Positions 10,729 through 61,961 of a stretch of DNA of 64,000 nt are shown here, one piece after another. Source of the DNA: a virus (Duplodnaviria > Caudoviricetes); IMG/VR virus record IMGVR_UViG_3300032254_000001, positions 224,001 to 288,000 of that record; one strand, 5' to 3'. The notes under the pieces were generated by a model. The model had not been told where the DNA came from. It saw only the letters and a list, made by a program, of their open reading frames with translations, and did no database searches. A program made the position numbers and the translations under genes. The stretch's first letter is position 1; every line of letters starts with the position of its first letter.

Positions 10729-10768
10729 CCTATTTATATTGTGTTCTCCAGGGATTTTTGTATAATTT

Positions 10769-29734: not shown

Positions 29735-29767
29735 AACCTCTTGTATGTAATTAGCACACAAGAGGTT
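29735..29767 (-). terminator. Intrinsic terminator
   Basis: AACCTCTTGT...ACAAGAGGTT, followed by a T-run on the minus strand. Confidence 0.6.
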
Positions 29768-30461: not shown

Positions 30462-31286
30462 TTAGTCGATACCGTCAGCTTTATTTTGAGCTAAGATTTC
30501 ACGCTTGCGCATCATACGCTCAATTCTTGATTTTGACAGGTTGAAGAAATACTCTGCTACACGCTCATGCCAGTGATGGTCTGGGTGCATTCCATCACGT
30601 GCAAATGAATCTATCACAAATGGATTGTTATCGTGCATCTGAAAATTAGTCAGAGTTTCTATAACAGGATTAGAAAAGAATGTAGCAGCATGATTATTAT
30701 ACAAGCTCTCTACAAAGCTATAATTCTTGTTAAAGTTAAATGTTAAATAACTCTCATCTATCATAACCTTAGGAAAATGTTCGTTGTCAATAGCCGCTTG
30801 TATTACCTTATTATCGCCGTAAGGGGTTGGTAGTTCAAGTCTTGTAATTGGAGGCCAGTACACATACACTAAGTCAGGTTCCATATCCCTGTCTACTTTA
30901 TACAGTGTACGAGCAACATAATCTGTGCTTGCTCCGCTAGTTGCCAGGTTCCAGTTAGATGCAGTCTTACCTGTGAACTCTTGTATTTTAGCTTGTAGTC
31001 TAGCAGGCCATGTTTCTTCTTGCTTAACCCCAACACCAACTGTCATGCTGCATCCACATGCTACTATCCTAATGTCAGGCTCATCATAAAAACTATCGCC
31101 ACGATAACCATGTTCGTTGAATGTGTATGTAATGTCGCGCTCAAACTGTGCATGTTCTGGCTTATCTGTATCTAACCAATCCACTGTCATGTTAGGAGGA
31201 TACATTCCACTCATAGGAATCTCTTTTGCCCAGCCAGTTAATGCACTTGTGTTATGCAGGAATTGTCGTTGCTTCCATTTGCTCAT
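30462..31286 (-). CDS. SGNH/GDSL-hydrolase-like protein
   Basis: GCSMT.G.G block I, NLA.SGAS block II, DGMHP block V. Confidence 0.65.
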   Translation of the reverse strand: MSKWKQRQFLHNTSALTGWAKEIPMSGMYPPNMTVDWLDTDKPEHAQFERDITYTFNEHGYRGDSFYDEPDIRIVACGCSMTVGVGVKQEETWPARLQAKIQEFTGKTASNWNLATSGASTDYVARTLYKVDRDMEPDLVYVYWPPITRLELPTPYGDNKVIQAAIDNEHFPKVMIDESYLTFNFNKNYSFVESLYNNHAATFFSNPVIETLTNFQMHDNNPFVIDSFARDGMHPDHHWHERVAEYFFNLSKSRIERMMRKREILAQNKADGID

Positions 31287-31600
31287 ACACTAAAGCTCGT
31301 TCCACAACCGCATTGTGTTTTAGCTGCTGGATTTGATACAACAAATCGCTCGCCTTGTACATCTTTAGTGTAATCAAGTGTTGCCGTCTCAAGGTACTGA
31401 TAGCTCATTGGATCAATTAATACTACCGCACCTGTGTCATTAATAATGATATCGCCTTCGTCAATCTGTTCTGCGAATGCAAACACATAATTAAATCCAC
31501 TACAGCCACCGCCCGATATGCCAATTCGCATTGCCATTGCATTGTCTGTTTCATTAAGTAAATCAAATACTTTTTGTTCTGCTGCTTTTGTTAAATTCAT
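31283..31600 (-). CDS. iscA: A-type Fe-S cluster carrier (HesB/IscA/ErpA family)
   Basis: GGGCSGF.Y, NP.AK..CGCG.SF signature. Confidence 0.93.
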   Translation of the reverse strand: MNLTKAAEQKVFDLLNETDNAMAMRIGISGGGCSGFNYVFAFAEQIDEGDIIINDTGAVVLIDPMSYQYLETATLDYTKDVQGERFVVSNPAAKTQCGCGTSFSV

Positions 31601-31609
31601 AATATTTCT

Positions 31610-31810
31610 CTAGTTGTCACATGCGTTGTACGCTTTAATTAACGAGTCAAGTATTTCCTTATCGATCTCGTCTGCTATTCCCTTGGCCATTTGCTTGACT
31701 AAGATATCTCGAAAACTCATCGACATATCAAACTCGTCTTCGACCGGCGGTATGCCGTTCTTTAAACGGTCCCAAACTTCTGCTTTTTCTTTTGAAAGTT
31801 TCTTAGCCAT
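31610..31810 (-). CDS. WxxL-tagged small protein with major-capsid-like fragment
   Basis: EVWDRLK tag; MAKGIADEIDKEILDSL vs gp23 LAQEITAEIDQEILLSL. Confidence 0.75.
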   Translation of the reverse strand: MAKKLSKEKAEVWDRLKNGIPPVEDEFDMSMSFRDILVKQMAKGIADEIDKEILDSLIKAYNACDN

Positions 31811-31812
31811 AC

Positions 31813-32028
31813 TTATGATACTACTATCGGATCATCAGGAAATGCACTCACTAATTTCCATACTGTGCCAGTAAACACATATATCTGCGAATCGTCTTTA
31901 TTGTAAATCATTGCACCGGCTGCTGGCGGACCTGTCACTGAAGAATTCCAGCCGACTTCGGAAGTCTGCTTAATTCCGTTCTTTAAACGATCCCAAACTT
32001 CTGCTTGATCAGATGTTAGTTCTTTCAA
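31813..32028 (-). CDS. WxxL-tagged small protein with tail-fibre-like motif
   Basis: EVWDRLK tag; AGAMIYN....QIYVFTGTVW. Confidence 0.7.
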   Translation of the reverse strand: MKELTSDQAEVWDRLKNGIKQTSEVGWNSSVTGPPAAGAMIYNKDDSQIYVFTGTVWKLVSAFPDDPIVVS

Positions 32029-32404
32029 GTAGGTCTTCCTCTATTCTTTTCTGCTTATTCTCTTTACTAATATGATGAAGAAAGGCTGAGTGACTAACTT
32101 GCACTAAAAATCCAAATGGGTTATTGCTTTTAGTTGAGTCAAAATGCTGATATGAAATTAACATTTGCATAACCGCAGCTTGAACTAAATCATCTGCGTA
32201 CACTAGACTCTGATAATGTTTTCTGTGTAGTAGTCTATCCGCAAGTTCTATCATGTACTTGCCTAATGCTTGCGATACTTTGCCATCATTTTGTGCATAG
32301 TCTATAGCAATAAGCAAATCAGAATTGTTGTTGATTGGACCGTAATAGCCCCACGGGTCAACTAACTTATCCCATACTGCACGTTGGTCTTTATTCAACA
32401 GCAT
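32009..32404 (-). CDS. WxxL-tagged truncated gp55-like sigma factor paralogue
   Basis: AVWDKL tag; IELADR..HR.HY....YADDL..A......FDSTKSNNPFGF......AFL..I.KE.KQ aligns with the gp55 core at 60984..61961. Confidence 0.75.
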   Translation of the reverse strand: MLLNKDQRAVWDKLVDPWGYYGPINNNSDLLIAIDYAQNDGKVSQALGKYMIELADRLLHRKHYQSLVYADDLVQAAVMQMLISYQHFDSTKSNNPFGFLVQVSHSAFLHHISKENKQKRIEEDLLERTNI

Positions 32405-32711
32405 TGAGTTTGTCCCATATAGCTTCTTTCTCTAAGCGATCATGGAACTCAATCATTGCTGCTTTTCTTTCTTTCTTAAAAAGATCAAGTGCTATCTTGT
32501 GTGGGCAGTCCTCAGGGTACTCAGTTATGTTGTGTTCAGCTTCGCTTAAGCGACAAGAAACCCAAGTGTTGTCTGACTCGTAGTCCCTGCTGTGATCGCT
32601 TATGTGTAATGTTTCATCCCACTCGTAGTAATTTTTACATTCAAGTATATCTCTGCACATACTGTCATAATGTATTCTAAACATCTTTCCTCTGCTCTGC
32701 TGCAATTTCAC
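32391..32711 (-). CDS. Cys/His-containing WxxL-tagged protein
   Basis: ECK.Y.E.D..C..NI.EYPE.C.H; AIWDKL; paralogue of 33765..34031. Confidence 0.7.
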   Translation of the reverse strand: MKLQQSRGKMFRIHYDSMCRDILECKNYYEWDETLHISDHSRDYESDNTWVSCRLSEAEHNITEYPEDCPHKIALDLFKKERKAAMIEFHDRLEKEAIWDKLNAVE

Positions 32712-32937
32712 TAATTAATATATCAGCTAGTTCTTGTTCAACATCTATTCCGTGTAGGGACTCTAGGTCTTTAGCAACGTCAACAGTCCAACTAGCACGT
32801 AGCCTACGGGTCACAGGGCCAGTCTCCTTTAGGCGGTCCCAAACTTTTTCTTTCTCTCGTTGAATAGCTTCTTTCTGCTTCCGGATACCGTTGCGGATCT
32901 TTCGTTGGTTCACTTGTATTGCTGTCTCTTTCATCAA
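32677..32937 (-). CDS. WxxL-tagged small protein with major-capsid fragment
   Basis: KVWDRLK; TRRLRASWT..DLESLHGIDVEQE..EIAAE is 21/39 identical to gp23 residues 167-205. Confidence 0.8.
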   Translation of the reverse strand: MMKETAIQVNQRKIRNGIRKQKEAIQREKEKVWDRLKETGPVTRRLRASWTVDVAKDLESLHGIDVEQELADILISEIAAEQRKDV

Positions 32938-33166
32938 ACTTCCATTCTCCTAGTATATGTTTATTAAATTCTGTCATATCTTTAGTCAGACTGTCAATGT
33001 ATGCGTCTACTAAAGACCAATCGATCCCATACTTCTGGGGGAGTTGTGTTACCCCAGATAATTTCTTCCATATGGTCTCTTCTTCTTTTTGCAGCCGCTC
33101 TCTTTCTTTTCGCCTCTGCTCTTTTCTTTTTCCGCGGGTCCTGAAACGTTTCCGTCTTGAAGTCAA
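32804..33166 (-). CDS. Arg-rich WxxL-tagged protein
   Basis: TTG start with GGAGG SD; TIWKKL; N-terminus paralogous to the 33419 gene. Confidence 0.7.
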   Translation of the reverse strand: MTSRRKRFRTRGKRKEQRRKERERLQKEEETIWKKLSGVTQLPQKYGIDWSLVDAYIDSLTKDMTEFNKHILGEWKFDERDSNTSEPTKDPQRYPEAERSYSTRERKSLGPPKGDWPCDP

Positions 33167-33419
33167 AATGAAACCCTCCTACTGGTTCTATACCTGCTGT
33201 TTGTTCGCCCATTGGCTGTACACCAACTAAGTCGTCTGCAATCATTACAGGTGCTATGCGTCTCATTAACGGCATTAAAATAGCGCCAAGATCATCCCAA
33301 TCGTATTCAGGTGGTAGTGGCGGGCTAACATTTGTTAACTTGTTCCAAGTCTCTAACGACTCTTTCCTTAGTGCTTTACGCTTACCACGCTGCCTACGTC
33401 TGCGCCTGACACTAGTCAT
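32994..33419 (-). CDS. Arg-rich WxxL-tagged protein with Gol-like major-capsid fragment
   Basis: ETWNKL and EVWDRL tags; LGAILMPLMRRIAPVMIADDLVGVQPM is 14/27 identical to gp23 residues 57-83. Confidence 0.8.
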   Translation of the reverse strand: MTSVRRRRRQRGKRKALRKESLETWNKLTNVSPPLPPEYDWDDLGAILMPLMRRIAPVMIADDLVGVQPMGEQTAGIEPVGGFHFDFKTETFQDPRKKKRAEAKRKRAAAKRRRDHMEEIIWGNTTPPEVWDRLVFSRRIH

Positions 33420-33765
33420 CGTCGGTAATATCCTTAGGTTTAGGTTTCATTATTATAACATTATCATGCTCGTCGGACTTCTCGTATTTGTTCTTAATAC
33501 TATCTAACTTTTCTTCAAATGTGTCGCAGGCCCACTCGTTTAATTGATTGTATAAGTCAGCAGCACCAGGCGTCACAGTGTGTCTAAATGTTTCTGTTTT
33601 TGAATCATAATTGCTGATTATACGTTCTATTCGTATTACCCGCTTCCTGCGCCACCAAGACTTGAAATGAATAGTAAAAACATCATAAACCTTTGTGCCA
33701 ATCTTATGCTCCATTGTGTGCTCGAAGTATTCGATTTTATCAAAAAATTCTTTAGGTAGTATCAT
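33412..33765 (-). CDS. Hypothetical protein (no tag)
   Basis: 117-aa coupled ORF. Confidence 0.65.
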   Translation of the reverse strand: MILPKEFFDKIEYFEHTMEHKIGTKVYDVFTIHFKSWWRRKRVIRIERIISNYDSKTETFRHTVTPGAADLYNQLNEWACDTFEEKLDSIKNKYEKSDEHDNVIIMKPKPKDITDDD

Positions 33766-34031
33766 TATAGGACCTGTATATGTACTGGATCACGTAAAAG
33801 TGATTTTACTGTTCTATGGGGTTGATTCAATTTCTTCCACATTATATCTTGTTGCTTTGCTTTATCTTTCGCAATGGTAATATCTTCAAGGTGCAAACAA
33901 CCTTCTGGATATTTAATAATGTTAATCGTCACACCCATTACAATACAGGAATGACATTTACCAACCTGCATATCAAACTCTCTGTGGTACTTGCATTCCT
34001 TTGATTTACAAAATTCATTAAAGTTATACAT
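33765..34031 (-). CDS. Cys/His-containing WxxL-tagged protein
   Basis: ECKYH.EFD..C..NI.KYPEGC.H; IMWKKL. Confidence 0.7.
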   Translation of the reverse strand: MYNFNEFCKSKECKYHREFDMQVGKCHSCIVMGVTINIIKYPEGCLHLEDITIAKDKAKQQDIMWKKLNQPHRTVKSLLRDPVHIQVL

Positions 34032-35055
34032 GCTCTACAACTACTTTTACATTTGGAAACGGTGTTATAAACTGCCCACATGCAGACTGAATTTCAACTC
34101 CGGTTGAAATTTGTATCTTTAAATTATTGTGAAACTTTGCAAACTGCACAATAATTTCCTTAAAGCGATCGCTTTCTTCCATTTCGTTAGCATCACATCT
34201 GTTATAGCGTAGTACTCTGAACTCGTAGTCTTCTAGATTCCACTTAGTGATAAAATCAAACAATGCTTGCACTTCTTCTTCGCTATCGTTAACACCATCC
34301 ATAAACATATGATGGAATATTAAATTATGTTTGTTGTTGTCTGCGTACTTTAACAGCTTCGGCATTGCTTCTTCCAATGGCATAGCTCCAGGAATAATTT
34401 GATCCCTAGTCTCTTGTACTGCACTGTGCAACGAATAAAACAATCTAAATGGACTGCGCTGTATGTAATTGCCCATTGATGATTGTGCTTCACTATGCAC
34501 AACAACCTTGTTATTTGGATTAGTTCCAAATGATTTTAGGTCTTCATTGAGCTCGTGAAATATGTCAATCCAATCATCGTTTCTAATTTTAGGTAGCACT
34601 GTTGAAAGATCAACACCATCTAAGCCTGCTGCGTAGTTGTTATCTGTTACGTAGTTTAACACATCGTTGGTTGCTCTGTACACCCCTGCTGGGTTAAGAA
34701 TTGCTTCGCCCATGCCCATCCAGCATACTTTCATGTATCTGCTTGCTATGCTTGCATCGTGTTGCACTGCATGATCAATTGCATCAATAAGATTTGATTG
34801 CACTGTAGTAATTGGCAGCTTCTTGTAAGGCATTTCTTTCATTGTTAAGTAACAGAAGTCACACTGCATCGGGCATCCGCCGCTAATCGATGCGAACACT
34901 GAATACTTATTTCTGTTAATAGGATTCATTTCCAGTACACCAGTTACTGGATTTCTAATTGTGTCGCAGCTTGAAACAGTTTTTATTGCAGTTTCAGACG
35001 TGTCGCTATGCACATACTTTGTTACTAGTCCGTCATCTGATTCAAAAACTTCCAT
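34024..35055 (-). CDS. RlmN/Cfr-like radical SAM protein
   Basis: GCPMQCDFC, MGMGE, SLHSA, EI.SACGQ motifs. Confidence 0.85.
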   Translation of the reverse strand: MEVFESDDGLVTKYVHSDTSETAIKTVSSCDTIRNPVTGVLEMNPINRNKYSVFASISGGCPMQCDFCYLTMKEMPYKKLPITTVQSNLIDAIDHAVQHDASIASRYMKVCWMGMGEAILNPAGVYRATNDVLNYVTDNNYAAGLDGVDLSTVLPKIRNDDWIDIFHELNEDLKSFGTNPNNKVVVHSEAQSSMGNYIQRSPFRLFYSLHSAVQETRDQIIPGAMPLEEAMPKLLKYADNNKHNLIFHHMFMDGVNDSEEEVQALFDFITKWNLEDYEFRVLRYNRCDANEMEESDRFKEIIVQFAKFHNNLKIQISTGVEIQSACGQFITPFPNVKVVVEHV

Positions 35056-35290
35056 TGGTATTCCTCTTCAATGAGTCCGGGTGAATTATTTCGTTACGAA
35101 CTCTGTTGTTTTCTCTTTCCCTTGCTGCTTCCATCTCTGCTAGTATCTCGTCTTGGATGCGACGAACTGCTTCTTCCATACGTCCTACCATGTGTCGTAG
35201 CATCTCTTCCCATTCCGTGTCATGGATAGAAGGTTCTTCCTGCAGACCGTTCTTTAAGCGATCCCAGACTTCTTCTTGCTCTGTGTTCAT
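35042..35290 (-). CDS. WxxL-tagged small protein
   Basis: EEVWDRLKNG. Confidence 0.7.
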   Translation of the reverse strand: MNTEQEEVWDRLKNGLQEEPSIHDTEWEEMLRHMVGRMEEAVRRIQDEILAEMEAARERENNRVRNEIIHPDSLKRNTNGSF

Positions 35291-35472
35291 GCCGTTGTGT
35301 CCGATACTATTGTTATAGCCTTGTCAGCTCGAAGCACCTGTGTTGACCAATATATCGATCGATACATAAGTGGTTCAAATTTAACCTTAGGCTCTGGAAC
35401 ATGCTTAAGCTTTTCCCACACCAGTTCTTTATCACTGGGTTCTGCAGATGTTACTTTCTTGACTTTTGCCAC
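35287..35472 (-). CDS. WxxL-tagged small protein
   Basis: ELVWEKLKHVPEPK, shared with the 36567 gene. Confidence 0.65.
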   Translation of the reverse strand: MAKVKKVTSAEPSDKELVWEKLKHVPEPKVKFEPLMYRSIYWSTQVLRADKAITIVSDTTA

Positions 35473-35671
35473 TAAATTTTAATGCGAAAATTATCGCATC
35501 CTCCTTATACTCAAACCACCAACGTGTGTTAGTGTAATGGTGATAAAAACATCCACCATCTTGTTGTTCGACACACCACTTGTGAGCTTCTTTAATACAG
35601 TCACGACATGGTGGTGGAACAACAAACCATAATTCATTACGATGTTCCTTAGGTGGATTACACCACTTCAC
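35432..35671 (-). CDS. Small 'W.FE..DA..F.LK' family protein
   Basis: KWC...WWFEYKEDAIIFALKF. Confidence 0.7.
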   Translation of the reverse strand: MKWCNPPKEHRNELWFVVPPPCRDCIKEAHKWCVEQQDGGCFYHHYTNTRWWFEYKEDAIIFALKFSGKSQESNICRTQ

Positions 35672-35919
35672 TCATCTTTACCTACTACCACATACTCGAC
35701 GCTAGATACGCCGTCACCTAAATCTTTGTGTACTAATTTAGTTTCCACCTTACCTCCTCGCATATCAGCGAACAGTTGCGATGCTTTTTTAAGTTCTTCT
35801 TCTGTGTTCTCTACTTCTTTCCAATTCGAAGCCTTGCTCAGCTTTTCCCACATTAATTCCTTATCGTCATCTTCTGTAGTCTTGCCAAGAAGTATTCTTT
35901 TAAAACGTTCTAAGTTCAT
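35668..35919 (-). CDS. WxxL-tagged small protein
   Basis: ELMWEKLS. Confidence 0.7.
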   Translation of the reverse strand: MNLERFKRILLGKTTEDDDKELMWEKLSKASNWKEVENTEEELKKASQLFADMRGGKVETKLVHKDLGDGVSSVEYVVVGKDE

Positions 35920-36143
35920 TTGTCGATTGTACTCTCAATATCGAAATACATTGTTTTACCAGCTCCGCGTCGTGCTGCTATTACAACCAATTCACCTTTG
36001 CCAACACCACCACACAATGCTCTACCTAATTGCTGTTGGTACCATGTTAGGCCGTTGCCATTAAATGGTGGTACATACTCTGTGGATAACTTTTCCCACA
36101 TTAGTTCCTGCTCAGCGGCTTTTGAGGATTTTGATTGTGACAT
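35916..36143 (-). CDS. WxxL-tagged protein with isolated P-loop (Walker A) fragment
   Basis: ELMWEKLS; GG...GELVVIAARRGAGKT. Confidence 0.75.
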   Translation of the reverse strand: MSQSKSSKAAEQELMWEKLSTEYVPPFNGNGLTWYQQQLGRALCGGVGKGELVVIAARRGAGKTMYFDIESTIDK

Positions 36144-36567
36144 TATTTGGATCCACCTCTTCTTTAGAAATACTTAGTATAGTGTCCATCATGCTCGGAT
36201 ATAATGAACTAATGTCATTATCAAACGTGCTACCCTTAGGCTGTGGAACATGTTTAAGCTTTTCCCAAACTTCTGCCTTTTCCTCTTCGATCTTCTGTAA
36301 TAAAATTTTAGCTTTAACACGGGTACCAAACACAGGACTTTTTGCAGCTTCCTGCAAGTCTGCTATCTCCATGCGGATCCGGTTGTCATGCTCCTCATCA
36401 GTATCAGTAATCATCCTAAGTCTAGCTTTTGCTCGTAGCCTAATGCCCATTGAATCATCCTTACTAAGGATTTTAAGATATTCCGGGCCATTGTTCATTA
36501 GCTCTATCTTCTCAGCTTCAGACATTGCCATTATTCTAATTTGGTCAAACAGATCAACTTCACTCAT
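36112..36567 (-). CDS. WxxL-tagged protein with DNA polymerase B motif-A fragment
   Basis: EVWEKLK; DISSLYPSMM. Confidence 0.75.
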   Translation of the reverse strand: MSEVDLFDQIRIMAMSEAEKIELMNNGPEYLKILSKDDSMGIRLRAKARLRMITDTDEEHDNRIRMEIADLQEAAKSPVFGTRVKAKILLQKIEEEKAEVWEKLKHVPQPKGSTFDNDISSLYPSMMDTILSISKEEVDPNNVTIKILKSR

Positions 36568-36797
36568 TTAAATTTTAATGCAAACAATGTTGCATCCTCT
36601 TCGTTTTCAAAATACCAATATGTTTCTCTAAATTCCACGTCCGCTTTATTTTCTTTATACCTGCGATAATATTGCCCTGATGAATTATGTCCTGTGCACC
36701 ATGATCCTTCCGCAGTATACGATCTAGATGCATGTCTAACTAATGTCACTTTATTCCACGGGTGGCCGTTAACATCGCCTATATCTTTATATTCCAC
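36564..36797 (-). CDS. Small 'W.FE..DA..F.LK' family protein
   Basis: WC..WYFENEEDATLFALKF. Confidence 0.7.
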   Translation of the reverse strand: MEYKDIGDVNGHPWNKVTLVRHASRSYTAEGSWCTGHNSSGQYYRRYKENKADVEFRETYWYFENEEDATLFALKFK

Positions 36798-36805
36798 AGT
36801 ACACC

Positions 36806-37198
36806 TTATTCATCAAACTTCTCATTTTTCAATTTATAAAATGTTTCAACGCTTTCTTCTGTGAACGGAACAAAGGTACTAGCCAATGCATCTTTGCCAG
36901 AAGTAAAATAAAATATCCAACCGCCCGGTACACGTTCAGCACAGGTATCGTCGTGTATATCTAAGCGATCATAATGTGGCATGGTATACAGTTGCCTGCG
37001 ATTCTTAGCATAGACCACTTCCCTTACTGCGGCTTCTTTAGCAGCCTCATCCATTTCTGCCCTGTGTTTCGCCATTATTTTGTCAATGCGATCACGGCGT
37101 TCTAATTCTTCACGTAGGCCTTTTGCCTTAGCTGCGTCTTTAGCTTCTTGCTCTTTCTTTTCTTTTAGTAGCTGCCGGTCTGCTTTACTTTTCCACAT
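36806..37198 (-). CDS. Hypothetical protein
   Basis: Start at MWKSK after GAGGAG; RVPGGWIF C-terminal motif. Confidence 0.65.
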   Translation of the reverse strand: MWKSKADRQLLKEKKEQEAKDAAKAKGLREELERRDRIDKIMAKHRAEMDEAAKEAAVREVVYAKNRRQLYTMPHYDRLDIHDDTCAERVPGGWIFYFTSGKDALASTFVPFTEESVETFYKLKNEKFDE

Positions 37199-37508
37199 CG
37201 TGGTACTCCTCGGGAGGAGCTGCAATTGCTTCTAAGTCGTATACCACTCGTTTAATGTACTGGAACTTTGATTCCGGATCATCGCATAATGCCATCCATG
37301 CTAATTCCTTATTAAACTTGAATTTAAGTGTGTTAGCTACGCCATTGGTATAGCGATTGATACGGCTAAGTTCAGCTTCGTGGTCACGTTTAACCCGAAG
37401 GAACTGCTTTTCGCGGTAGTTAATATGCTGGGCTTGGCCTTTAGCCTTGTCTTCCAGATCCTTTATTTGCTGTTTAAGATCCTTAATTATATCGCGTTTT
37501 GATGCCAT
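37185..37508 (-). CDS. Hypothetical coiled-coil protein; first gene of the tagged operon
   Basis: Directly after the promoter at 37541-37569. Confidence 0.65.
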   Translation of the reverse strand: MASKRDIIKDLKQQIKDLEDKAKGQAQHINYREKQFLRVKRDHEAELSRINRYTNGVANTLKFKFNKELAWMALCDDPESKFQYIKRVVYDLEAIAAPPEEYHDVEK

Positions 37509-37540
37509 AACTACCACTGAGGTTAACGAATTGTGTAGTA

Positions 37541-37569
37541 ATTATAGCAAGTTTTGGAGGGATGGTCAA
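37541..37569 (-). promoter_or_regulatory. Early sigma70 promoter TTGACC-17-TATAAT
   Basis: Heads the coupled operon containing the tagged genes. Confidence 0.8.
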
Positions 37570-37808
37570 TCAGTTTTGGTGTCATCGAGTGTAATGTTAA
37601 CGCTTAAATAGGGGAATTCGGTGTCATCTACGTACTCAACATCGTACGGCTTTTCAATTGTGCAATCGGTACTTAAAAAGGCATCTACTGCCGTCTGTTC
37701 CTCTATGGATAATACCTCATCCTGGAAAAGCCATATATCCATAACCGATTCGAATCCACCGTGCTTAATAAGAAGCAGTGTCATTAGGTGTTCCTGTTCT
37801 GGAGTCAT
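37566..37808 (-). CDS. Small 'L.(L/I)K(Y/H)G' family protein
   Basis: TLLLIKHGGFE..MDIWL; promoter TTGACA-17-TAACAT at 37856-37884. Confidence 0.65.
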   Translation of the reverse strand: MTPEQEHLMTLLLIKHGGFESVMDIWLFQDEVLSIEEQTAVDAFLSTDCTIEKPYDVEYVDDTEFPYLSVNITLDDTKTD

Positions 37809-37880
37809 AAGTCAGACCTTTATGGGCTTCTGTGTTTGACGCTTTACAAGCCGTTATGTTAACACACTATTTTGGTGTTG

Positions 37881-38033
37881 TCAATGGCTGTTCTTTATAT
37901 GCACGTCAAAACCTTCTTTTTCATGCTCGTAATATACAGGAGTATTGTTCAAAATCTTTGCTATTGAATGTGCAAACTCTCTGTCTTCTGTCATTAGTCG
38001 TACGAATGTTGCTTTAAGCTCTTCGTCACTCAT
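37881..38033 (-). CDS. Small hypothetical protein (50 aa)
   Basis: Not in track. MSDEELKATFVRLMTEDREFAHSIAKIL... Confidence 0.5.
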   Translation of the reverse strand: MSDEELKATFVRLMTEDREFAHSIAKILNNTPVYYEHEKEGFDVHIKNSH

Positions 38034-38247
38034 CTTCATTATCTGTATCCTTTGGATTATCGTATAGTTTGTTAAACTCTTTCTTTACATCTAAAACAAG
38101 ATTTGGTAATATTTTTATTGCATGTTCACCTAGTACTTCCTTCTGGGCATCACTGAACTGTTCTTTATCGTACAACCATATACAGAATGCGTTCTCTATA
38201 CTGCCGTACTTCAAAATTAAAAATGTTTTAACATCATCTTCACTCAT
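38026..38247 (-). CDS. Small 'LILKYG' family protein
   Basis: TFLILKYGSIENAFCIWL. Confidence 0.7.
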   Translation of the reverse strand: MSEDDVKTFLILKYGSIENAFCIWLYDKEQFSDAQKEVLGEHAIKILPNLVLDVKKEFNKLYDNPKDTDNEDE

Positions 38248-38447
38248 TTGCGTCTGGTCTCTGCAAAGAATATATTAATAGCATCGTGCAAGTGAGCGGG
38301 CATTTTATCGTGTGTATTGATCCACATATGGAATGCTTTGTCCAAATTGCCGTATTTTAATATTAAATATGATTCTATATTATCCATAGTTATCGGTCCC
38401 GGGTGATACGCTGTTCGCGTTACTAGCGTAACACACTCGTCTACCAA
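38244..38447 (-). CDS. Small 'LILKYG' family protein (true start probably MDNIES)
   Basis: SYLILKYGNLDKAFHMWI. Confidence 0.65.
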   Translation of the reverse strand: MVDECVTLVTRTAYHPGPITMDNIESYLILKYGNLDKAFHMWINTHDKMPAHLHDAINIFFAETRRK

Positions 38448-38465
38448 AAGTCAACCTCAATCTGC

Positions 38466-38678
38466 TCATTTTAAGTCATCTTTTAGTGTAACACTTACTG
38501 GATATTTAATACCATCTTTGGTATGCTCTAATATCATGTGTGCTAGTTCGGATATAGTAGGATCTGGGTCGTTCTTAAATACATCAAGATGCTTACCATA
38601 ACGTACCATTATGAACTTTTCTTCAAACGGTAAGGAGTAGTACTTGATGTGATCAAATACATTTGATTCATTTGCCAT
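38466..38678 (-). CDS. Small hypothetical protein
   Basis: FIMVRYG, weakly like the LILKYG family. Confidence 0.6.
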   Translation of the reverse strand: MANESNVFDHIKYYSLPFEEKFIMVRYGKHLDVFKNDPDPTISELAHMILEHTKDGIKYPVSVTLKDDLK

Positions 38679-38847
38679 TATCTTTATCTCTTTGATCTAA
38701 ATAATCGTTAAGTGCTTTTACTGCTTCCGTTAAGTTGTCCTTATTTCTATCAGTATTGTATTTCTGGATTATATCCAATTTTTGTTCCGTTGTTAGGTAT
38801 TCCTTATTAAGGTTTTCCCATGTTTCTTCTTCAGGTGTTTTAGCCAT
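38668..38847 (-). CDS. Small WxxL-like tagged protein (59 aa)
   Basis: Not in track. MAKTPEEETWENLNKEY...; follows the promoter at 38886-38914. Confidence 0.6.
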   Translation of the reverse strand: MAKTPEEETWENLNKEYLTTEQKLDIIQKYNTDRNKDNLTEAVKALNDYLDQRDKDNGK

Positions 38848-38885
38848 AATTCGTGCTTCTATCTTGAGGGCGCTTTACAGCACTT

Positions 38886-38958
38886 AGTATAACAATTTAA
38901 AATGCGTTTGTCAACCTTATCGTAATATTTGACTTATACCCATTTTGCATGTTACACT
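38886..38958. promoter_or_regulatory. Back-to-back sigma70 promoters
   Basis: Minus: TTGACA-17-TATACT (38914-38886). Plus: TTGACT-18-TACACT (38929-38958). Confidence 0.7.
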
Positions 38959-38962
38959 CATC

Positions 38963-39035
38963 CTACGAAAGCGTAGAGCAGTTACACGCTTTTGGCCCAC
39001 TAGGGCCATCGAGGACGAAGTACTCGAGTAACTGC
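38963..39035 (+). ncRNA. Structured 5' leader (hairpin plus three-way junction)
   Basis: CTACG/CGTAG; GCAGTTAC/GTAACTGC encloses TGGCCC/GGGCCA and TCGAG/CTCGA. Confidence 0.55.
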
Positions 39036-39053
39036 GAAGAATAGGAACTTATT

Positions 39054-39284
39054 ATGAATGTAGTACCCGGAGCATCTATAACAGCTATTAAAGATTCGTA
39101 CTTTATGGTTGAAGCACGTACTCCTTTTGAGCGTGATGGCGAATTATATCCATGGTGTAAGAATCACGATAGCGAAGGATATTTCAATTATGCTAATCGC
39201 TACTCTAGTGGCGGTAACGTCCGACCACAGTTTTGGTTTGAGTTAGAAGCTGATGCTATGTTGTTTAAGTTGAAATTCGCATGA
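39054..39284 (+). CDS. Small 'W.FE..DA..F.LK' family protein
   Basis: WC...FWFELEADAMLFKLKF. Confidence 0.7.
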   Translation: MNVVPGASITAIKDSYFMVEARTPFERDGELYPWCKNHDSEGYFNYANRYSSGGNVRPQFWFELEADAMLFKLKFA

Positions 39285-39628
39285 GACTTATAATAGCTGG
39301 AAGCAGACACTTAACACTTGATGTAGAAGGCATACAGGCCTTTATTAACTATTTAGGTATTACAGATATAACCGAAGTAGTGTGTGGCATGGCGCCTGGT
39401 ATTGATGCTGCTGGAAAATTATGGGCAGAATCTAATAACATTCCAGTTGAGCCGTTTCCTGCAGAGTGGGAGACGTACGGCAAAGCTGCTGGGCATATAC
39501 GCAATAAGCAAATGGCAGACTACGGTGATGAACTACTAGTAATTTGGAACGGTAAGTCTCCGGGTTCTCGTAATATGAAGACCACAATGGAAAAATTGGG
39601 CAAAAAGGTACACGAAGGCACATTCTAA
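39281..39628 (+). CDS. SLOG-superfamily protein (DUF2493/YspA-like)
   Basis: IIAGSR, G.A.G.D, FPA.W..YGKAAG..RN.QM, W.G.S.G motifs. Confidence 0.8.
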   Translation: MRLIIAGSRHLTLDVEGIQAFINYLGITDITEVVCGMAPGIDAAGKLWAESNNIPVEPFPAEWETYGKAAGHIRNKQMADYGDELLVIWNGKSPGSRNMKTTMEKLGKKVHEGTF

Positions 39629-39810
39629 TGACAAACGATTACCCATACAAAGTTAGATTTAAATGGCGTTACGGTGAAATGCTAAAGGATCTTTCTGCAT
39701 GGTGTAATGAGAATTGCACCGGCGAATATCAGTATCAATACACTGCTTCAGTGTTTTGGTTTAAAGAGTCTAAGGATGCAATGATGTTTAAACTGGCTAA
39801 CAACTTATGA
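39628..39810 (+). CDS. Small 'W.F...DA..F.L' family protein
   Basis: WC...FWFKESKDAMMFKL. Confidence 0.65.
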   Translation: MTNDYPYKVRFKWRYGEMLKDLSAWCNENCTGEYQYQYTASVFWFKESKDAMMFKLANNL

Positions 39811-39992
39811 TACTAAGCATTCCAATCAAAGATTACTGCATTGGTTGTCGTATGAAGTCTGTCAGACCGCAGTTTAAACCTAGGCAAGACGACTTCAATT
39901 ATCTGTACTTTAGTATTAACGATGTTGTGTACTTTGAATGGAGTAAGGAATTTGAGCAAGCTTTACTATGGGAGGCACTGCAACGTGATTGA
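39807..39992 (+). CDS. Small hypothetical protein
   Basis: FEWSKEFEQALLWEAL; paralogue of the next gene. Confidence 0.6.
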   Translation: MILSIPIKDYCIGCRMKSVRPQFKPRQDDFNYLYFSINDVVYFEWSKEFEQALLWEALQRD

Positions 39993-40167
39993 ATACCAGC
40001 GACTAGACTATCCGTGGGAATGGTACGTACTTACTGAGAGGGATTTTATCTGTCGCCCTGATGACTTTAGGCGAATTATATTTAGAGTTGATGGTGCAGA
40101 ATTTATCGAGTGGAATGCAGAATTTGAACATGCTCTTTTAATAGAAAGGCTTAGCCGGTCTGCTTGA
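39922..40167 (+). CDS. Small hypothetical protein (true start likely GTG ~39985)
   Basis: IEWNAEFEHALLIERL. Confidence 0.55.
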   Translation: MLCTLNGVRNLSKLYYGRHCNVIEYQRLDYPWEWYVLTERDFICRPDDFRRIIFRVDGAEFIEWNAEFEHALLIERLSRSA

Positions 40168-40192
40168 CAAACTAAAATTTACATGTTATGCT
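40164..40192 (+). promoter_or_regulatory. Sigma70 promoter TTGACA-17-TATGCT with no downstream ORF
   Basis: Points into an ~80-nt noncoding stretch that ends at a terminator. Confidence 0.6.
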
Positions 40193-40279
40193 TAGTTCTG
40201 TCCAAGCAAGCGAGGTCAGTCGAACACGTTCGAGTCACCCGCAACAACAGAACCTACTTATCATGGATTACAACTCAAA

Positions 40280-40307
40280 AAAAAGCACTCTGTAAAGAGT
40301 GCTTTTT
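40280..40307. terminator. Bidirectional intrinsic terminator after gp23
   Basis: AAAAAGCACTCT-gtaa-AGAGTGCTTTTT. Confidence 0.85.
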
Positions 40308-40346
40308 AATTTTACTTCAAACTATCTAAGATAGTACAGTAACAAC

Positions 40347-41537
40347 TTAGCTAAAGCTTAAATTGCTGACTGCGACTTCCCCTAAATAATCTCCAGCATT
40401 ACCGAAAGATGATGCAGTATTCGTAAGCTCAATATAACCATAACGTGTCATAAAGCTTACAACTGGCTCAAATGTACTTGGATCAAGTACAACACCTGAA
40501 CTCATTAAAGGAACGTATGGGCAGTAGAACGCTGGTGCGTCTGCTTCGCTTGAACCTTTATAACCAACAAGTACTGGAGTAGTGTCGTTAGCATAGCTAT
40601 CAACGTAAACTTTCATTGCTGAGTTAAGAGTACCAACAAACTTAGTGTTTGTAGGAGCTTCAAATGTACCTTCAGTGGTACGTGCAAATGCAGAGGTAGT
40701 AGCTGACTGTAGTACAGTTAAAGAAGCTGGTGAAACAACTGCATAGTTACCAGCGCCACGACGTGTACGTGTAGCGATAAGGTTAGCTGTACGGTTGATA
40801 AGAACTGCTAATGCAGCATGTTCATCACCTACGAATGTAGCAGTACCTGAAACAAGTGACTGATCGTATGTGAATTCTGTGCTTGCTAATGAACGTAAAG
40901 ATAAAAGAATCTCTTGGTCAATTTCAGCAGTAATTTCTTGTGCTAAAGCAGCCATGATTTCAGCTTCAACATCAATGCCGTGCATTGACTGAGCATCTTG
41001 AGCAGCTTCAAAAGTCCAACGTGCTTGTAACTTACGTGTCTTAGCTTCAACAGCTTGCTTTAAGATCTGAACGGAAATGTTACGACCGCCTTCGCCTTCT
41101 AAGTTTGCTGTCTGTGCTGCACGGTAGTCAGCTTGTGTAGCGCCAACACCAGCTGAGTATGCTTGCGCAATCTTGAATGGTGATAGTGCTTCTTCGCCTG
41201 CTGCTGTACTAGTACTAGCTGCACTTGAATCAGTCATAGTAGAACCGTAACGTACACGAAGTGTATGAATCTGGCTTACAGGACCTGACATTGGCTGTAC
41301 ACCTACAAGTTCATTTGCAATGACTGTAGGCATAACACGTCGAATAACTGGTAAAATAACACGGTTTAATGTTGCAACGTTACCAGCGGCAGTAGCGCCA
41401 CTTGATGCAGATTCTGCTAAGTGGTTACGAGTGTTTTCCAAAATTACGCTCATTGTAGAACGTTTGGTACCGTCTAGACCTTCAAGCAATGCTTCTTTGG
41501 TCTCACCCCAACGGTTTTCTAATAGTGCTTGTGACAT
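40347..41537 (-). CDS. gp23: Major capsid protein
   Basis: IRR..P..IA..LVGVQPM, KTRKL.ARWT.E.AQD, EIDQEI, FYCPYVPL, MTRYG motifs. Confidence 0.98.
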   Translation of the reverse strand: MSQALLENRWGETKEALLEGLDGTKRSTMSVILENTRNHLAESASSGATAAGNVATLNRVILPVIRRVMPTVIANELVGVQPMSGPVSQIHTLRVRYGSTMTDSSAASTSTAAGEEALSPFKIAQAYSAGVGATQADYRAAQTANLEGEGGRNISVQILKQAVEAKTRKLQARWTFEAAQDAQSMHGIDVEAEIMAALAQEITAEIDQEILLSLRSLASTEFTYDQSLVSGTATFVGDEHAALAVLINRTANLIATRTRRGAGNYAVVSPASLTVLQSATTSAFARTTEGTFEAPTNTKFVGTLNSAMKVYVDSYANDTTPVLVGYKGSSEADAPAFYCPYVPLMSSGVVLDPSTFEPVVSFMTRYGYIELTNTASSFGNAGDYLGEVAVSNLSFS

Positions 41538-41558
41538 TATAATCTCCTATTTAACACT

Positions 41559-42659
41559 TTATTTTAAGCCAGCTAAAGTTTTAATATCAACGATATTGCT
41601 ATCATCGTTAGTATTTACTTTAGCTGTTTTATCACCAGTTACTTCTTTACGGCTTTCTGTTACTACGCGCTTCTTAGAAGGTGTAGCGTCATTGGCTTTA
41701 TTAGCAAGTACCGCTGGCAGATATTTCTCGAAAGCATTCGATAATCGACTTGTTTGAACGCTTTCTAATAAGTTTTGCATGATCTCACGCTTATCTTCGT
41801 TTAAAGGTGCTAACAAATCTGTCATAGCCTCATCACGTTGATTGCCTTCTTTTATCATACGAATTTCTTTGTTTTTACTTTCTGTAAGTGCTTCTAACTT
41901 AGTTGCTTTAGTAGCAGACTCTTTCAACTCTGTTTCCTTAGCTTCTAAACTATCTTTCAACTTACGGATTTCTGCATTTTCGTTTAAGTGTGTTGATGTA
42001 AACTCACTTGAAAAAGCTTCGAAAATACGTCGACCAAAGCTGTTCTCGCGAGCAGATTTGATGTCTTCTTGTAATGTTGTTAACTCTGTTGATAGTGTTG
42101 ACTTAACATGGTTCTGGACTTTAGCAGCACTTTCTTTAACGAAACGTGTTTTAAGTGCTTCTAGTTGTGTACGTGCTTCTGCAACAAGCTTAACCTTCGT
42201 TTCAACGACGTCTTGCTTATCTTTTGCAAATTCACGAACTTCTTTTGCTAACTGTTTAGCAACAAAAGATTCAACTGCTTCTAATCCTTCACTTTGGATT
42301 TGGCGGTCCTTACGTAGTTCTTTAATTTCTTCAGCTAACTTAGCAGTCATGAAATTATTAAACTTAGCACCGTTTTCAGCCATCTTCTTATTGAACTTAA
42401 CTCGATCTTCTGCTAATGCAGCTTTCTCTTCCTTAAATTCACTAATTTCAGACTGTAAACCTTCAGTAACCATTTTATCAAGAGCTTCGACCATTACTTT
42501 CTTGTCGTGATCGTAACGTTGTGCGAATTCCTCACGTAACTCAGTACGCAATTCTTCACGTGCTTCGTTTAACTTTGAATCCCAGGCTTCCATAATCTCT
42601 GAGCTGGTATCTTCGTTAATCACGTTACTGTCAAGCAATTGTTTGATTGCATCTAGCAT
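41559..42659 (-). CDS. gp22: Prohead core scaffold protein
   Basis: Acidic coiled coil between protease and capsid; FGR.IFEAF. Confidence 0.85.
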   Translation of the reverse strand: MLDAIKQLLDSNVINEDTSSEIMEAWDSKLNEAREELRTELREEFAQRYDHDKKVMVEALDKMVTEGLQSEISEFKEEKAALAEDRVKFNKKMAENGAKFNNFMTAKLAEEIKELRKDRQIQSEGLEAVESFVAKQLAKEVREFAKDKQDVVETKVKLVAEARTQLEALKTRFVKESAAKVQNHVKSTLSTELTTLQEDIKSARENSFGRRIFEAFSSEFTSTHLNENAEIRKLKDSLEAKETELKESATKATKLEALTESKNKEIRMIKEGNQRDEAMTDLLAPLNEDKREIMQNLLESVQTSRLSNAFEKYLPAVLANKANDATPSKKRVVTESRKEVTGDKTAKVNTNDDSNIVDIKTLAGLK

Positions 42660-42670
42660 TTTGTGGTCTC

Positions 42671-43303
42671 CTAAATTTTAAGATCTTTGATTAGGGCAAT
42701 TACGCCTTCTTTCAAATATCTTTGTACACGTTTGTTCTCGCTAGCTTCTTCTGCAATACCTAACAACTTCAATCCGCCTTTCATATTCATGATGCCTTCA
42801 TATATAGCTGTTGGGTACGCTTCAGGCGCACTAGGTTGAGCAACGATATCGACTGTGATTATCTCAAAGTCTGATACGTGTCCTGTAGCTTCGTTAACAT
42901 TACCGCTTCCTCTAGATGAAACGCCTAGCTTAACGCCTGCGCCTAACATCGTTTCAATGACTTTACCCATTGGAGTTGGAAGTATTTTTAACTTGCCATA
43001 ACCGTTAGCGCCTTCCATCCACATTTCTGTGATCATGTGCGACACGCGGTCTAAATTTATTTTTAAATCATCTGGGTGATCTATTTCGCCTAAAACGGAA
43101 TAGCCACCTGTGATTTGTTCGTTAAGTGTGCTAACGGCTGTGTTAATTTCTCTCACTGGATATATACGCTGATTAGCATTTCTCTGATCACCTTGGATGC
43201 AGATGCCTTTCATGTATAAATCTTTTCCGCCTTTACCGTCAGCAGCTTCTTCAAGCTGGACTTTAGCTGCGTCAAAGTTTAAATATTCTTGTAAGATACT
43301 CAT
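42671..43303 (-). CDS. gp21: Prohead core protease
   Basis: N.N.RIYP, GE.DHP, LGVSSRG.G, TVDIVAQPSAP.A motifs. Confidence 0.95.
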   Translation of the reverse strand: MSILQEYLNFDAAKVQLEEAADGKGGKDLYMKGICIQGDQRNANQRIYPVREINTAVSTLNEQITGGYSVLGEIDHPDDLKINLDRVSHMITEMWMEGANGYGKLKILPTPMGKVIETMLGAGVKLGVSSRGSGNVNEATGHVSDFEIITVDIVAQPSAPEAYPTAIYEGIMNMKGGLKLLGIAEEASENKRVQRYLKEGVIALIKDLKI

Positions 43304-43312
43304 AATCTAACC

Positions 43313-60983: not shown

Positions 60984-61961
60984 TTATGAATCGTCAGTTT
61001 TCTTTTTGTTGGGGTTACACAAGTTATAATCGTATGCAAAGTCTTCTTTCTTGCCTTCGTTTGCAAACTGTCTAGTCCAACTAGGTGTTAGTCCGTTAGC
61101 TTCGAGAATATCATCACGTATATTTTGCATCTTCTTCTCAATGTTTAGTACACGAGTAAAGCTGTTAGTCACTGCGGCAGTGTAGTACGCAAATGGGTTC
61201 TGTGATTTAAGTTCATTAAACTGTAGCCCAATCTGTGATAGCTGCAATAACGCTTGTCCTTGCATCTCATCGTTATACGTATACCCACGCCAGTTACTAC
61301 GTGTGCCATAACGTTCGCATAGCTTTATGTACATCATAGCTAAGTTATTTGTAGTTCTGCCATGATCTTTGGTAAACTTGCCTTCTTCGATATCGCCCTT
61401 CCAGTGTGATTTACCTACTATTTCTGCAGATAGCTCACCATCTGTGTCTGTTACACGGTAATGGAAGAATGGAGGGAAGTTAACACGCATTGGTATCATT
61501 TCAACATCTGGATCAGTTGGTGATAATGATTGATCATCGTCAGTTTCGATTAGTTCGTCAAATACTGCGTTTGCTTTTGCTTGTTTCGCTGCTTTAGCTA
61601 ATGCCGCTTTTGATTTCTTCTTAGGCACTAGCGGAATGTGCTCATTGGTCATAACACGGAATACAACATCATGCAGTTCAACGTCTGCTACATCTGTCGG
61701 TATTTCTAACTTAGTGAGTCGTGTTGCTCGTGCTTGTCTAGCTAAATCAACGACGGGTACGTCTTTGAATGTAGGGTTACCGTTTTCGTCTTTGCCGACA
61801 TCAACGTTCTGTGTTCCCCAAATTTCTTCTAGTGATTCTACTATGAAGTCTTGCTGATTGTCCTCAACTTTATCTTTAAAGGAACAATATGATATTTTGC
61901 TTAGGTGTATTTCTTTAAGCATATCCTTATTATTTAAGTAATTCTTTTTTCTCTTAGCCAT
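60984..61961 (-). CDS. gp55: Late transcription sigma factor
   Basis: NYLNNKDML.EI; L.ERY..R.NWRGYTY.DEM; F.E.KS.NPFAYYT; start MAKRKK after GAGGA. Confidence 0.93.
   Translation of the reverse strand: MAKRKKNYLNNKDMLKEIHLSKISYCSFKDKVEDNQQDFIVESLEEIWGTQNVDVGKDENGNPTFKDVPVVDLARQARATRLTKLEIPTDVADVELHDVVFRVMTNEHIPLVPKKKSKAALAKAAKQAKANAVFDELIETDDDQSLSPTDPDVEMIPMRVNFPPFFHYRVTDTDGELSAEIVGKSHWKGDIEEGKFTKDHGRTTNNLAMMYIKLCERYGTRSNWRGYTYNDEMQGQALLQLSQIGLQFNELKSQNPFAYYTAAVTNSFTRVLNIEKKMQNIRDDILEANGLTPSWTRQFANEGKKEDFAYDYNLCNPNKKKTDDS

Follow-up and report, generated by a model that had tools for sequence, protein, structure and literature searches.

What does a second, miniature gp55-like protein do in the genome of a large phage? 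The question is raised by a gene on the minus strand of a 64,000-nt window, bases 224001-288000 of the phage record IMGVR_UViG_3300032254_000001, which holds the complete genome (344,483 bp, direct terminal repeats, 40% G+C) of an uncultured, T4-like phage. Textbooks present gp55 as the minimal sigma factor, and exactly two genes of this type were found in the genome, one for a long, canonical late sigma (P0002) and one for a protein of 131 residues (P0001, here called the mini-sigma), whose N-terminus (MLLNKDQRAVWDKL) includes a short peptide tag that a dozen neighbouring mini-proteins share. The mini-sigma is a genuine gene with the sigma region-2 fold of gp55. Its function is proposed more tentatively: with a probability that we place at roughly 0.45, it would be an early sigma mimic that binds the polymerase core and either modulates transcription or competes for the core.

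The relationship to gp55 was apparent at several levels of sequence comparison. A single BLASTP comparison aligned the mini-sigma to the core of the long gp55 with 25% identity over 92 amino acids (aa) and E = 2e-11, including a small third segment in which NNSDLLIAI is paired with NNKDMLKEI. The core alignment reported in a first-pass annotation of this locus was thereby reproduced, and the ends that it gave for the open reading frame (ORF), which lies on the minus strand, proved exact; the tag that it mentioned stands at residues 9-14 of the protein (AVWDKL). The Pfam family Sigma70_r2 (PF04542) matched residues 61-116 with 28.9 bits against a cut-off of 24, and no other stretch of the genome exceeded this cut-off. 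Among phage protein families, phrog_234 ('late sigma transcription factor') matched residues 38-128 (E = 1.1e-16), and PHROG 12791, the long jumbo type of gp55, matched over profile positions 157-259 of 286 (E = 1.9e-10). The best tblastn matches in the phage collection were gp55s of cyanophages (31-32% identity, E about 1e-11), and the best sequence match in the Protein Data Bank was T4 gp55 (7d7c_F, E = 0.0024). An exhaustive phmmer search returned 859 relatives at E<=1e-3, a search that was needed to find the family, as the word-indexed search for homologues of near length had returned P0001 itself only. A search for related loci among viral contigs with P0001 alone found nothing, and no phage record matched the 10 kb around the gene in megablast.

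To place the protein among known folds, a model was computed with AlphaFold2 from an alignment of 70 rows and reached a mean predicted local distance difference test (pLDDT) of 94.3 and a predicted template-modelling score of 0.82. It consists of helices at residues 5-15, 17-21, 27-40, 45-59, 70-87 and 96-130. The top match in Foldseek was T4 gp55 (7d7c_F; TM score 0.73, root-mean-square deviation (rmsd) 1.7 Å, probability 1.0), and superposition of residues 24-131 of the model on residues 10-128 of 7d7c_F by VIA-align gave Z 13.0 with an rmsd of 1.7 Å over 107 residues. The next structural matches were the sigma-2 domains of SigB, sigma-S, sigma-70, sigma-E and SigC (Z 8.4-11.2), each superposed over about 90 residues with an rmsd of 1.9-2.8 Å. 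The likeness to sigma domain 2 foreseen by the first-pass annotation is thus present, to gp55 (Z 13.0) and to sigma-2 domains in general (Z 8-11). Where the annotation spoke of a second gp55-like sigma factor, the kinship with gp55 holds, whereas the evidence leans against conventional sigma function.

In the solved structure of T4 gp55, helices H1-H4 form the sigma region-2 homology domain, the long H4 and H5 make a helix-loop-helix, and the sliding clamp is bound by a motif at the C-terminus. Contacts with the beta-prime clamp helices are made by E70, D74 and E77, the pockets for the -10-like element are built from N13, L54, R57, F86, H95, Y97 and T99, and R114 touches the template strand (Shi et al., PMC7892883). 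The mini-sigma shares with it H1-H4, the acidic residue of H3, the FD..K..NP.AY loop and a long H4 (residues 96-130) with a basic patch, here KENKQK. Eight of the ten canonical pocket and DNA-contact residues are kept (N27, L58, R61, F88, N95, P96, F97 and F99), and the only changes are T99 to V and R114 to N; within the pocket, F88, F97, F99 and V101 (32102-32104) are the equivalents of T4 F86, H95, Y97 and T99. Because the protein ends at residue 131, before H5 and the tail, the helix-loop-helix is incomplete and the sliding-clamp-binding motif is absent. The C-terminal tail that the first-pass annotation had listed as lacking is indeed missing, whereas its mention of a lost large N-terminal part is misleading: that part is an addition of the jumbo-type gp55s (phrog_12791), without which the T4 protein has 185 aa and that of Syn9 155 aa, and H1 is present in the mini-sigma. 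What the mini-sigma adds is the tag helix (residues 1-23), which has no counterpart in the solved structure and, modelled with pLDDT of about 92 at residues 5-15, lies outside the part superposed on gp55. It further differs from T4 gp55 in being a second copy beside a canonical gp55, and one that is probably expressed early.

The mini-sigma belongs to a family of at least 22 metagenomic representatives of 50%-identity clusters, itself included, with lengths of 126-145 aa; the 21 others align to it end to end at 27-43% identity. Only W11 and L14, both in the tag, are invariant in the alignment of the 22 members, and A55, D72 and F88 are nearly so. The family shares a consensus start, xxL[ST]KxQ[RK]xxWxxLK[DY]P[YW], into which the MLLNKDQR of P0001 fits. 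The tag is thus the best-conserved feature of the family and, being common to the neighbouring mini-proteins, a portable peptide module. Twenty of the 22 members match Sigma70_r2. A tree constrained to unite the 22 tagged proteins had a log likelihood 59 above that of a quick free tree and was not rejected (approximately unbiased test, p-AU 0.89). In the free tree, which is weakly resolved, the smallest split holding all 22 also takes in 16 other proteins, and this group adjoins the clade of the long jumbo type (Shimodaira-Hasegawa-like approximate likelihood ratio test, SH-aLRT 76).

To compare the constraint on tagged and ordinary proteins, the 22 tagged members and 132 untagged gp55s were placed in one alignment. 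Every tagged protein ends 1-18 residues past T4 position 125, where the untagged proteins continue for a median of 45 residues. The position of T4 E70, the beta-prime contact, holds D or E in 22/22 tagged and 131/132 untagged proteins, and the positions of F86 and Y97 are kept in both groups alike. Other positions that read the promoter have drifted. T99 is T or S in 122/132 untagged proteins but in only 7 of the 22 tagged ones, most of which have V, I, K, M or E; N93 is N in 14/22 against 130/132; the H95 position is aromatic in 14 of the tagged proteins and F in 129 of the untagged; and that of L54, hydrophobic in untagged proteins, is occupied by scattered residues in the family. When the mean column entropy of the ten pocket and DNA-contact positions was set against that of the rest of the core, the tagged family gave 1.95 and 2.19 bits, a ratio of 0.89, whereas 200 random subsamples of 22 untagged gp55s gave 0.78 and 2.00 bits, a ratio of 0.39 with a maximum of 0.49. 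The promoter-reading constraint seen in ordinary gp55s is therefore largely lost in the tagged family, among whose members P0001 is one of the more canonical.

Docking of the domain on polymerase was addressed by complex prediction, using the family alignment and residues 250-330 of E. coli beta-prime. The score was 0.81, compared with 0.10 for the best of three controls. It is a mark that 58 of 80 solved complexes attain, as do 2 of 110 mismatched pairs, a calibration that is approximate here since an alignment of our own was used. Three runs agreed in at least 86% of contacts, with a partner pLDDT of at least 81. The predicted interface joins residues 42-52, 68-83 (H3, including D72) and 118-126 of the mini-sigma to residues 263-298 and 316-319 of beta-prime, and the tag lies outside the confident contacts. 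The prediction with the beta-prime coiled coil that the first-pass annotation had suggested thus returns the H3 interface of gp55, and, because the gp55-polymerase complex is already solved (7d7c) and may have been remembered, it speaks for likeness rather than for binding itself. The mini-sigma would most likely still dock on the polymerase core.

The context of the gene bears on when the protein would be made. There is a 14-nt overlap between its start and the end of the upstream ORF, and another overlap between its stop and the next ORF, and from these overlaps at both ends the gene and its flanking ORFs look translationally coupled. The block that holds the tagged genes is headed by a sigma-70-type early promoter and contains a second promoter-like site of the same type; the first intrinsic-terminator-like hairpin lies downstream of the gene (Table 1). 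On the minus strand, no other terminator-like site was found from 38916 to 29767, and the late motif ATAAATA is absent between 38916 and 30446. The heading promoter belongs to a family, GGTTGAC...TAnnnT (AAAGGTTGACCTTT...TATAATTAGTACATAG), that has 31 copies in the genome. Late promoters for the gp55 class are of the TATAAATA type, and this genome uses NTAAATA: 40 of 88 copies of ATAAATA lie just upstream of genes, C- and T-TAAATA variants also occur, and the gp23 gene carries the T-variant GTTAAATA. Once the early and late motifs were masked, no third enriched upstream motif was found in the genome. Since its promoters are of early type, with neither a late motif nor a terminator between them and the gene, the mini-sigma is probably made early.

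Table 1. Positions of the mini-sigma, its parts, its neighbours and the associated signals in the window
Feature	Position	Strand	Remarks
Mini-sigma coding sequence (P0001), 131 aa	32009..32404	-	ATG at 32404; stop 32011-32009
Tag helix, residues 5-15 (KDQRAVWDKLV)	32360..32392	-	W11 32372-32374, L14 32363-32365
Sigma region-2 homology domain, residues 24-131	32012..32335	-	Corresponds to gp55 helices H1-H4 (T4 residues 10-128)
Helix H3, residues 70-87, predicted beta-prime clamp-helix contact	32144..32197	-	D72 corresponds to T4 E70
H3-H4 loop FDSTKSNNPFGF, residues 88-99, -10-like-element pocket	32108..32143	-	Homology to T4 gp55
Upstream 97-aa protein, four conserved Cys, C-terminal tag copy EAIWDKLNAVE-stop	32391..32684	-	Apparently coupled to the mini-sigma
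Downstream 71-aa tagged ORF (AEVWDRLKNG), overlapping	31813..32028	-	TTG start, +1 frame
Sigma-70-type early promoter GGTTGACA-17-TATACT	38886..38916	-	11/12 consensus positions; heads the block with the tagged array
Second sigma-70-type promoter-like site TTGACC-17-TATAAT, with TG	37541..37569	-	Inside the array block
First downstream intrinsic-terminator-like hairpin	29735..29767	-	13-bp stem, then T run
Long gp55 (P0002), 325 aa, canonical late sigma	60984..61961	-	phrog_12791 E = 6e-76; adjoins gp47-like gene
Sigma-70-type (early-type) promoter of P0002	~62017	-	Member of the GGTTGAC...TAnnnT family

Across the genome there are 21 copies of the tag, [VIMTL]W[DEKN][RK]L, and a stretch of 4.5 kb (31777-36270) holds 14 of them, all on the minus strand. 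Here small genes of one orientation make up a conserved row, or array, that carries at least 14 tags. Tag codons vary synonymously, so that selection acts on the peptide. The tag stands at the N-terminus of some proteins and at the C-terminus of others, and the C-terminal position is kept between relatives. Pieces of gp23 are also present in the array, with a match to phrog_138 on an 86-aa ORF (E = 2e-11) and matches to PF07068 at three places; a 66-aa tagged neighbour had no tblastn match among 50,697 phage records. The cysteines of the 97-aa protein encoded just upstream follow the pattern CRDILEC...VSC...CPH. A homologue of 38% identity occupies the same position in contig L016, with the cysteine residues and the C-terminal tag kept; the gene is conserved in place in L016 and L017 and absent from L003, L005 and L015. 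Contigs of the family share a gene order in which a small Gp23-fragment gene, sometimes a 106-aa gene, the mini-sigma, small (tagged) genes and an IscA-like gene follow one another, and all family loci are rich in tags. In the 250-kb contig L015 the array comes after the head genes gp21-gp22-gp23, and it lies downstream of the head genes here too, with gp23 at 40347-41537. The stretch is present in two DNA runs from microbial-mat metagenomes, and no RNA run is listed as containing it. One of the two DNA runs may be the source of this DNA; the other covers only parts of it, with no differing letters, and offers no polymorphism for a test of selection.

Two pairs of tags lie 41-43 nt apart in different frames (32363-32434 and 33018-33087). 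In one pair AIWDKL ends an ORF and AVWDKL starts the mini-sigma, and in the other TIWKKL starts an ORF and EVWDRL ends the overlapping one. To judge from the letters, such pairing looks like the footprint of duplication or recombination at the tags, or of selection for tags at adjacent gene ends. Genes of Fe-S biogenesis lie in or beside the array, an IscA-like gene at 31283-31600 (-) and a gene for a 343-aa Fe-S/radical-SAM-like protein at 34024-35055 (-); relatives carry NifU_N (L016:9411-10154), and the Fe-S genes are conserved across relatives. Two identities proposed for the tag were set aside. As a clamp-binding motif it was dropped as unlikely: VWDKL is unlike the SLDFLY of T4, the Pfam gp45 (sliding clamp) families had no match in the genome, and a 222-aa ORF upstream of a gp44-like gene could not be verified as the clamp. 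As a sigma region 1.2 helix it had a single hint, an Atlas feature of 0.78, below the meaningful level, and PF00140 was found in 0/22 members.

The early promoters are strikingly uniform across their 31 copies: the -35 is extended (AAAGGTTGACCTTT), and conservation continues past the -10 (TATAATTAGTACATAGTTAGATAA). Copies in the window lie, for example, at 10730(-), 10966(+), 38916(-) and 62017(-). Many NTAAATA motifs stand exactly 12 nt ahead of an ATG (TAAATA, 5 nt, ATG) with no Shine-Dalgarno sequence, as at 44456(-) and 4262(+) in the window and at G000 111749, 116940 and 131562 outside it. This spacing suggests that late mRNAs may be leaderless or near-leaderless; other late genes, including gp23 (motif at 41554), have a leader with GGAG. 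Many intergenic stretches outside the window, at G000:C1 ~36000-49500, contain tRNA-like sequence (GGTTCGAACC-type arms), which suggests a large putative cluster of tRNA genes.

From the fold, the predicted interface and the promoter context we infer polymerase binding, early timing and the role of a competitor, and these together make up the sigma-mimic reading. With H5 and the clamp tail missing and the pocket constraint lost, the mini-sigma is presumably not a normal clamp-activated late sigma. Host sigma-70-type promoters would drive its early synthesis, along with that of the other tagged mini-proteins, and through H3 it would bind the beta-prime clamp helices of the host core, where every sigma docks. 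Occupation of the core would then shift the competition among host sigma, long gp55 and mini-sigma, with shut-off of sigma-70 transcription, a changed timing of late transcription, or both, as the consequence. Several points weigh against this proposal. In neither family does conservation at the beta-prime interface exceed that in the rest of the domain, so conservation alone does not single out polymerase binding as the function under selection, and the E. coli beta-prime used as a stand-in may differ from that of the host. The timing is read from matches to promoter and terminator consensus sequences. As the pocket of P0001 is mostly canonical, this copy may have kept the ability to recognise a TAAATA-like element. 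Blocking of the sigma site would, moreover, impair early and late transcription of the phage itself, unless the competitor were tuned or removed. Finally, the function of the tag is left unaccounted for by the sigma-mimic model.

The first-pass annotation had left the choice between an alternative sigma, an anti-sigma and a decoy; their shared premise of a sigma domain 2 stands, and the evidence leans towards a competitor or mimic and away from a conventional sigma. A working, clamp-independent alternative sigma, with its own promoter class or acting on TAAATA promoters before replication in a 'middle' phase, is rather unlikely in our estimate, although for P0001 itself it is a rival to be taken seriously. 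This copy keeps the eight pocket and DNA-contact residues and the basic patch of H4, and it alone in the genome passes the Pfam Sigma70_r2 cut-off. In T4, loss of the clamp-binding region leaves gp55 able to form open complexes and to support basal transcription, whereas truncation of the helix-loop-helix leaves polymerase binding intact and impairs open-complex formation and transcription (PMC7892883). The absence of H5 thus counts against an active sigma, unless the tag helix might structurally replace it. The family at large argues the same way, with the pocket constraint nearly gone (0.89 against 0.39) and the T99 equivalent replaced in most members. A, C and T variants of TAAATA could in principle be divided between two sigmas, but gp23 itself uses the T-variant, so that the variants form no obvious regulons, and the genome has no third enriched upstream motif that such a sigma could claim.

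Other explanations start from the array rather than from the sigma domain. The mini-sigma may be one of a set of baits, pieces of core phage proteins that would soak up a sensor of host defence or poison the machinery of a co-infecting relative, and not regulate the phage's own transcription. The conserved row of tags, the gp23 pieces among the neighbours, the location of the invariant residues in the tag and not in the sigma part, and the relaxed pockets would all suit a bait, the pockets in that a bait needs no more than a likeness to gp55. We nevertheless consider a bait quite unlikely: a folded domain, an invariant beta-prime-contact acid and a confidently predicted interface suggest engagement with polymerase, the analysis points to no sensor or rival phage, and no system of defence directed at gp55 is known to us, on a search that was not exhaustive. 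Very unlikely is a role of the tag in capsid targeting, by which the mini-sigma would be packed in the head, injected with the DNA and act on host polymerase at once. A short tag common to unrelated small proteins of a hyperplastic region, encoded just downstream of gp21-gp22-gp23 both here and in L015, does recall the capsid-targeting sequence of T4 internal proteins, a leader of about ten residues at the N-terminus of late, packaged proteins that ends in an L/I-x-E site for the prohead protease. No conserved L/I-x-E follows the tag, however, whereas the gp23 of this phage has HLAE/S (cut at the slash); tags also occur at C-termini, a position conserved between relatives; the promoters of the array are of sigma-70 type, with no late promoter among them; and the tag helix is confidently modelled, unlike a flexible leader. 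These points leave a T4-type leader function unsupported. Extremely improbable, lastly, is a decaying gp55 duplicate without function. Truncation and relaxed pocket residues are what decay would leave, yet the ORF is intact and constant in length in at least 22 divergent clusters, which also keep the invariant tag residues and the gene order, and the model of P0001 is very confident.

A wider extension of the sigma-mimic reading is conceivable. The mini-sigma could be the polymerase-directed member of an early system, not described before, that fuses the tag to pieces of phage core proteins, an idea that we regard as unlikely as matters stand. It is to the same degree speculative that, in such a system, the tag ([VIM]-W-x-[KR]-L after a charged helix) would be fused at either end to a sigma domain, to capsid segments and to others. 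If this were true, the tag would put dominant-negative or decoy modules under common control, through a shared docking partner or timed removal, and the phage would hold back or protect late functions, late transcription among them, until the right moment. A search of the literature returned no paper on a second, truncated or tagged gp55. This natural family pares gp55 down further, keeping the polymerase-binding domain while the pockets drift and a foreign N-terminal tag stays invariant, and it provides an experiment of nature on the capacities left to a sigma-2 domain in the absence of promoter recognition. The mini-sigma also hints at a new means by which large phages might schedule or shield their late transcription, and as the member that links a well-understood partner, polymerase beta-prime, to the tagged array, it offers the most tractable entry to the function of the tag.

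Comparison with other gp55 proteins sets the mini form apart. The long gp55 of this phage shares 38-39% identity with its counterparts in RaK2-type jumbo phages and Phosso, and its core is the part homologous to the mini-sigma. Proteins of this jumbo type (PHROG 12791) carry an insert of about 170 residues, absent from P0001, that separates the core from an H1-like segment at the N-terminus, and a tail of about 40 residues with the motif GLTPSWTRQ, which the mini form also lacks. RaK2, the Sinorhizobium phage Phosso and XbC2 were checked and have the long gp55 gene only, with no mini form. A post-H4 motif, IRDxLLxxxG..PS[YWF]..Q, is common to P0002 and many non-T4 gp55s (31/132 untagged proteins in its strict form), and the mini family stops just ahead of it. 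The C-terminus of P0002 (60984-61100) has EDFAYDY, a faint likeness to the clamp-binding SLDFLY of T4.

The closest parallel in gene content was found in the 362-kb contig L027, where a 205-aa full gp55 is followed, with a 4-nt overlap, by a copy of 108 aa (P0023) that consists of H1-H4 only (L027:7387-8327). A split gp55 was considered for this pair and rejected, as the sequence is that of two tandem paralogues. Like P0001, P0023 is a gp55 copy that ends just past H4 beside a full-length gp55 in a large phage; unlike it, P0023 carries no tag, has no tagged array at its locus and sits at the canonical gp55-gp47-gp46 site. Its occurrence shows that truncated gp55 paralogues arose more than once in large phages. 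In proposed function the mini-sigma is nearest to Srd and Srh of T4, which are listed as early decoys of sigma-70/sigma-38 and of sigma-32, respectively, from the polymerase core (PMC3594737). The likeness lies in small size, resemblance to sigma and the early-type promoter context: Srd and Srh are small, sigma-like and early and are proposed to occupy the core instead of directing initiation, and early expression of the mini-sigma is probable from its promoters. The difference lies in descent and build: the two T4 proteins are like segments of host sigma-70/38 and sigma-32, whereas the mini-sigma is a whole folded sigma-2 domain of the phage's own gp55 lineage and bears a tag.

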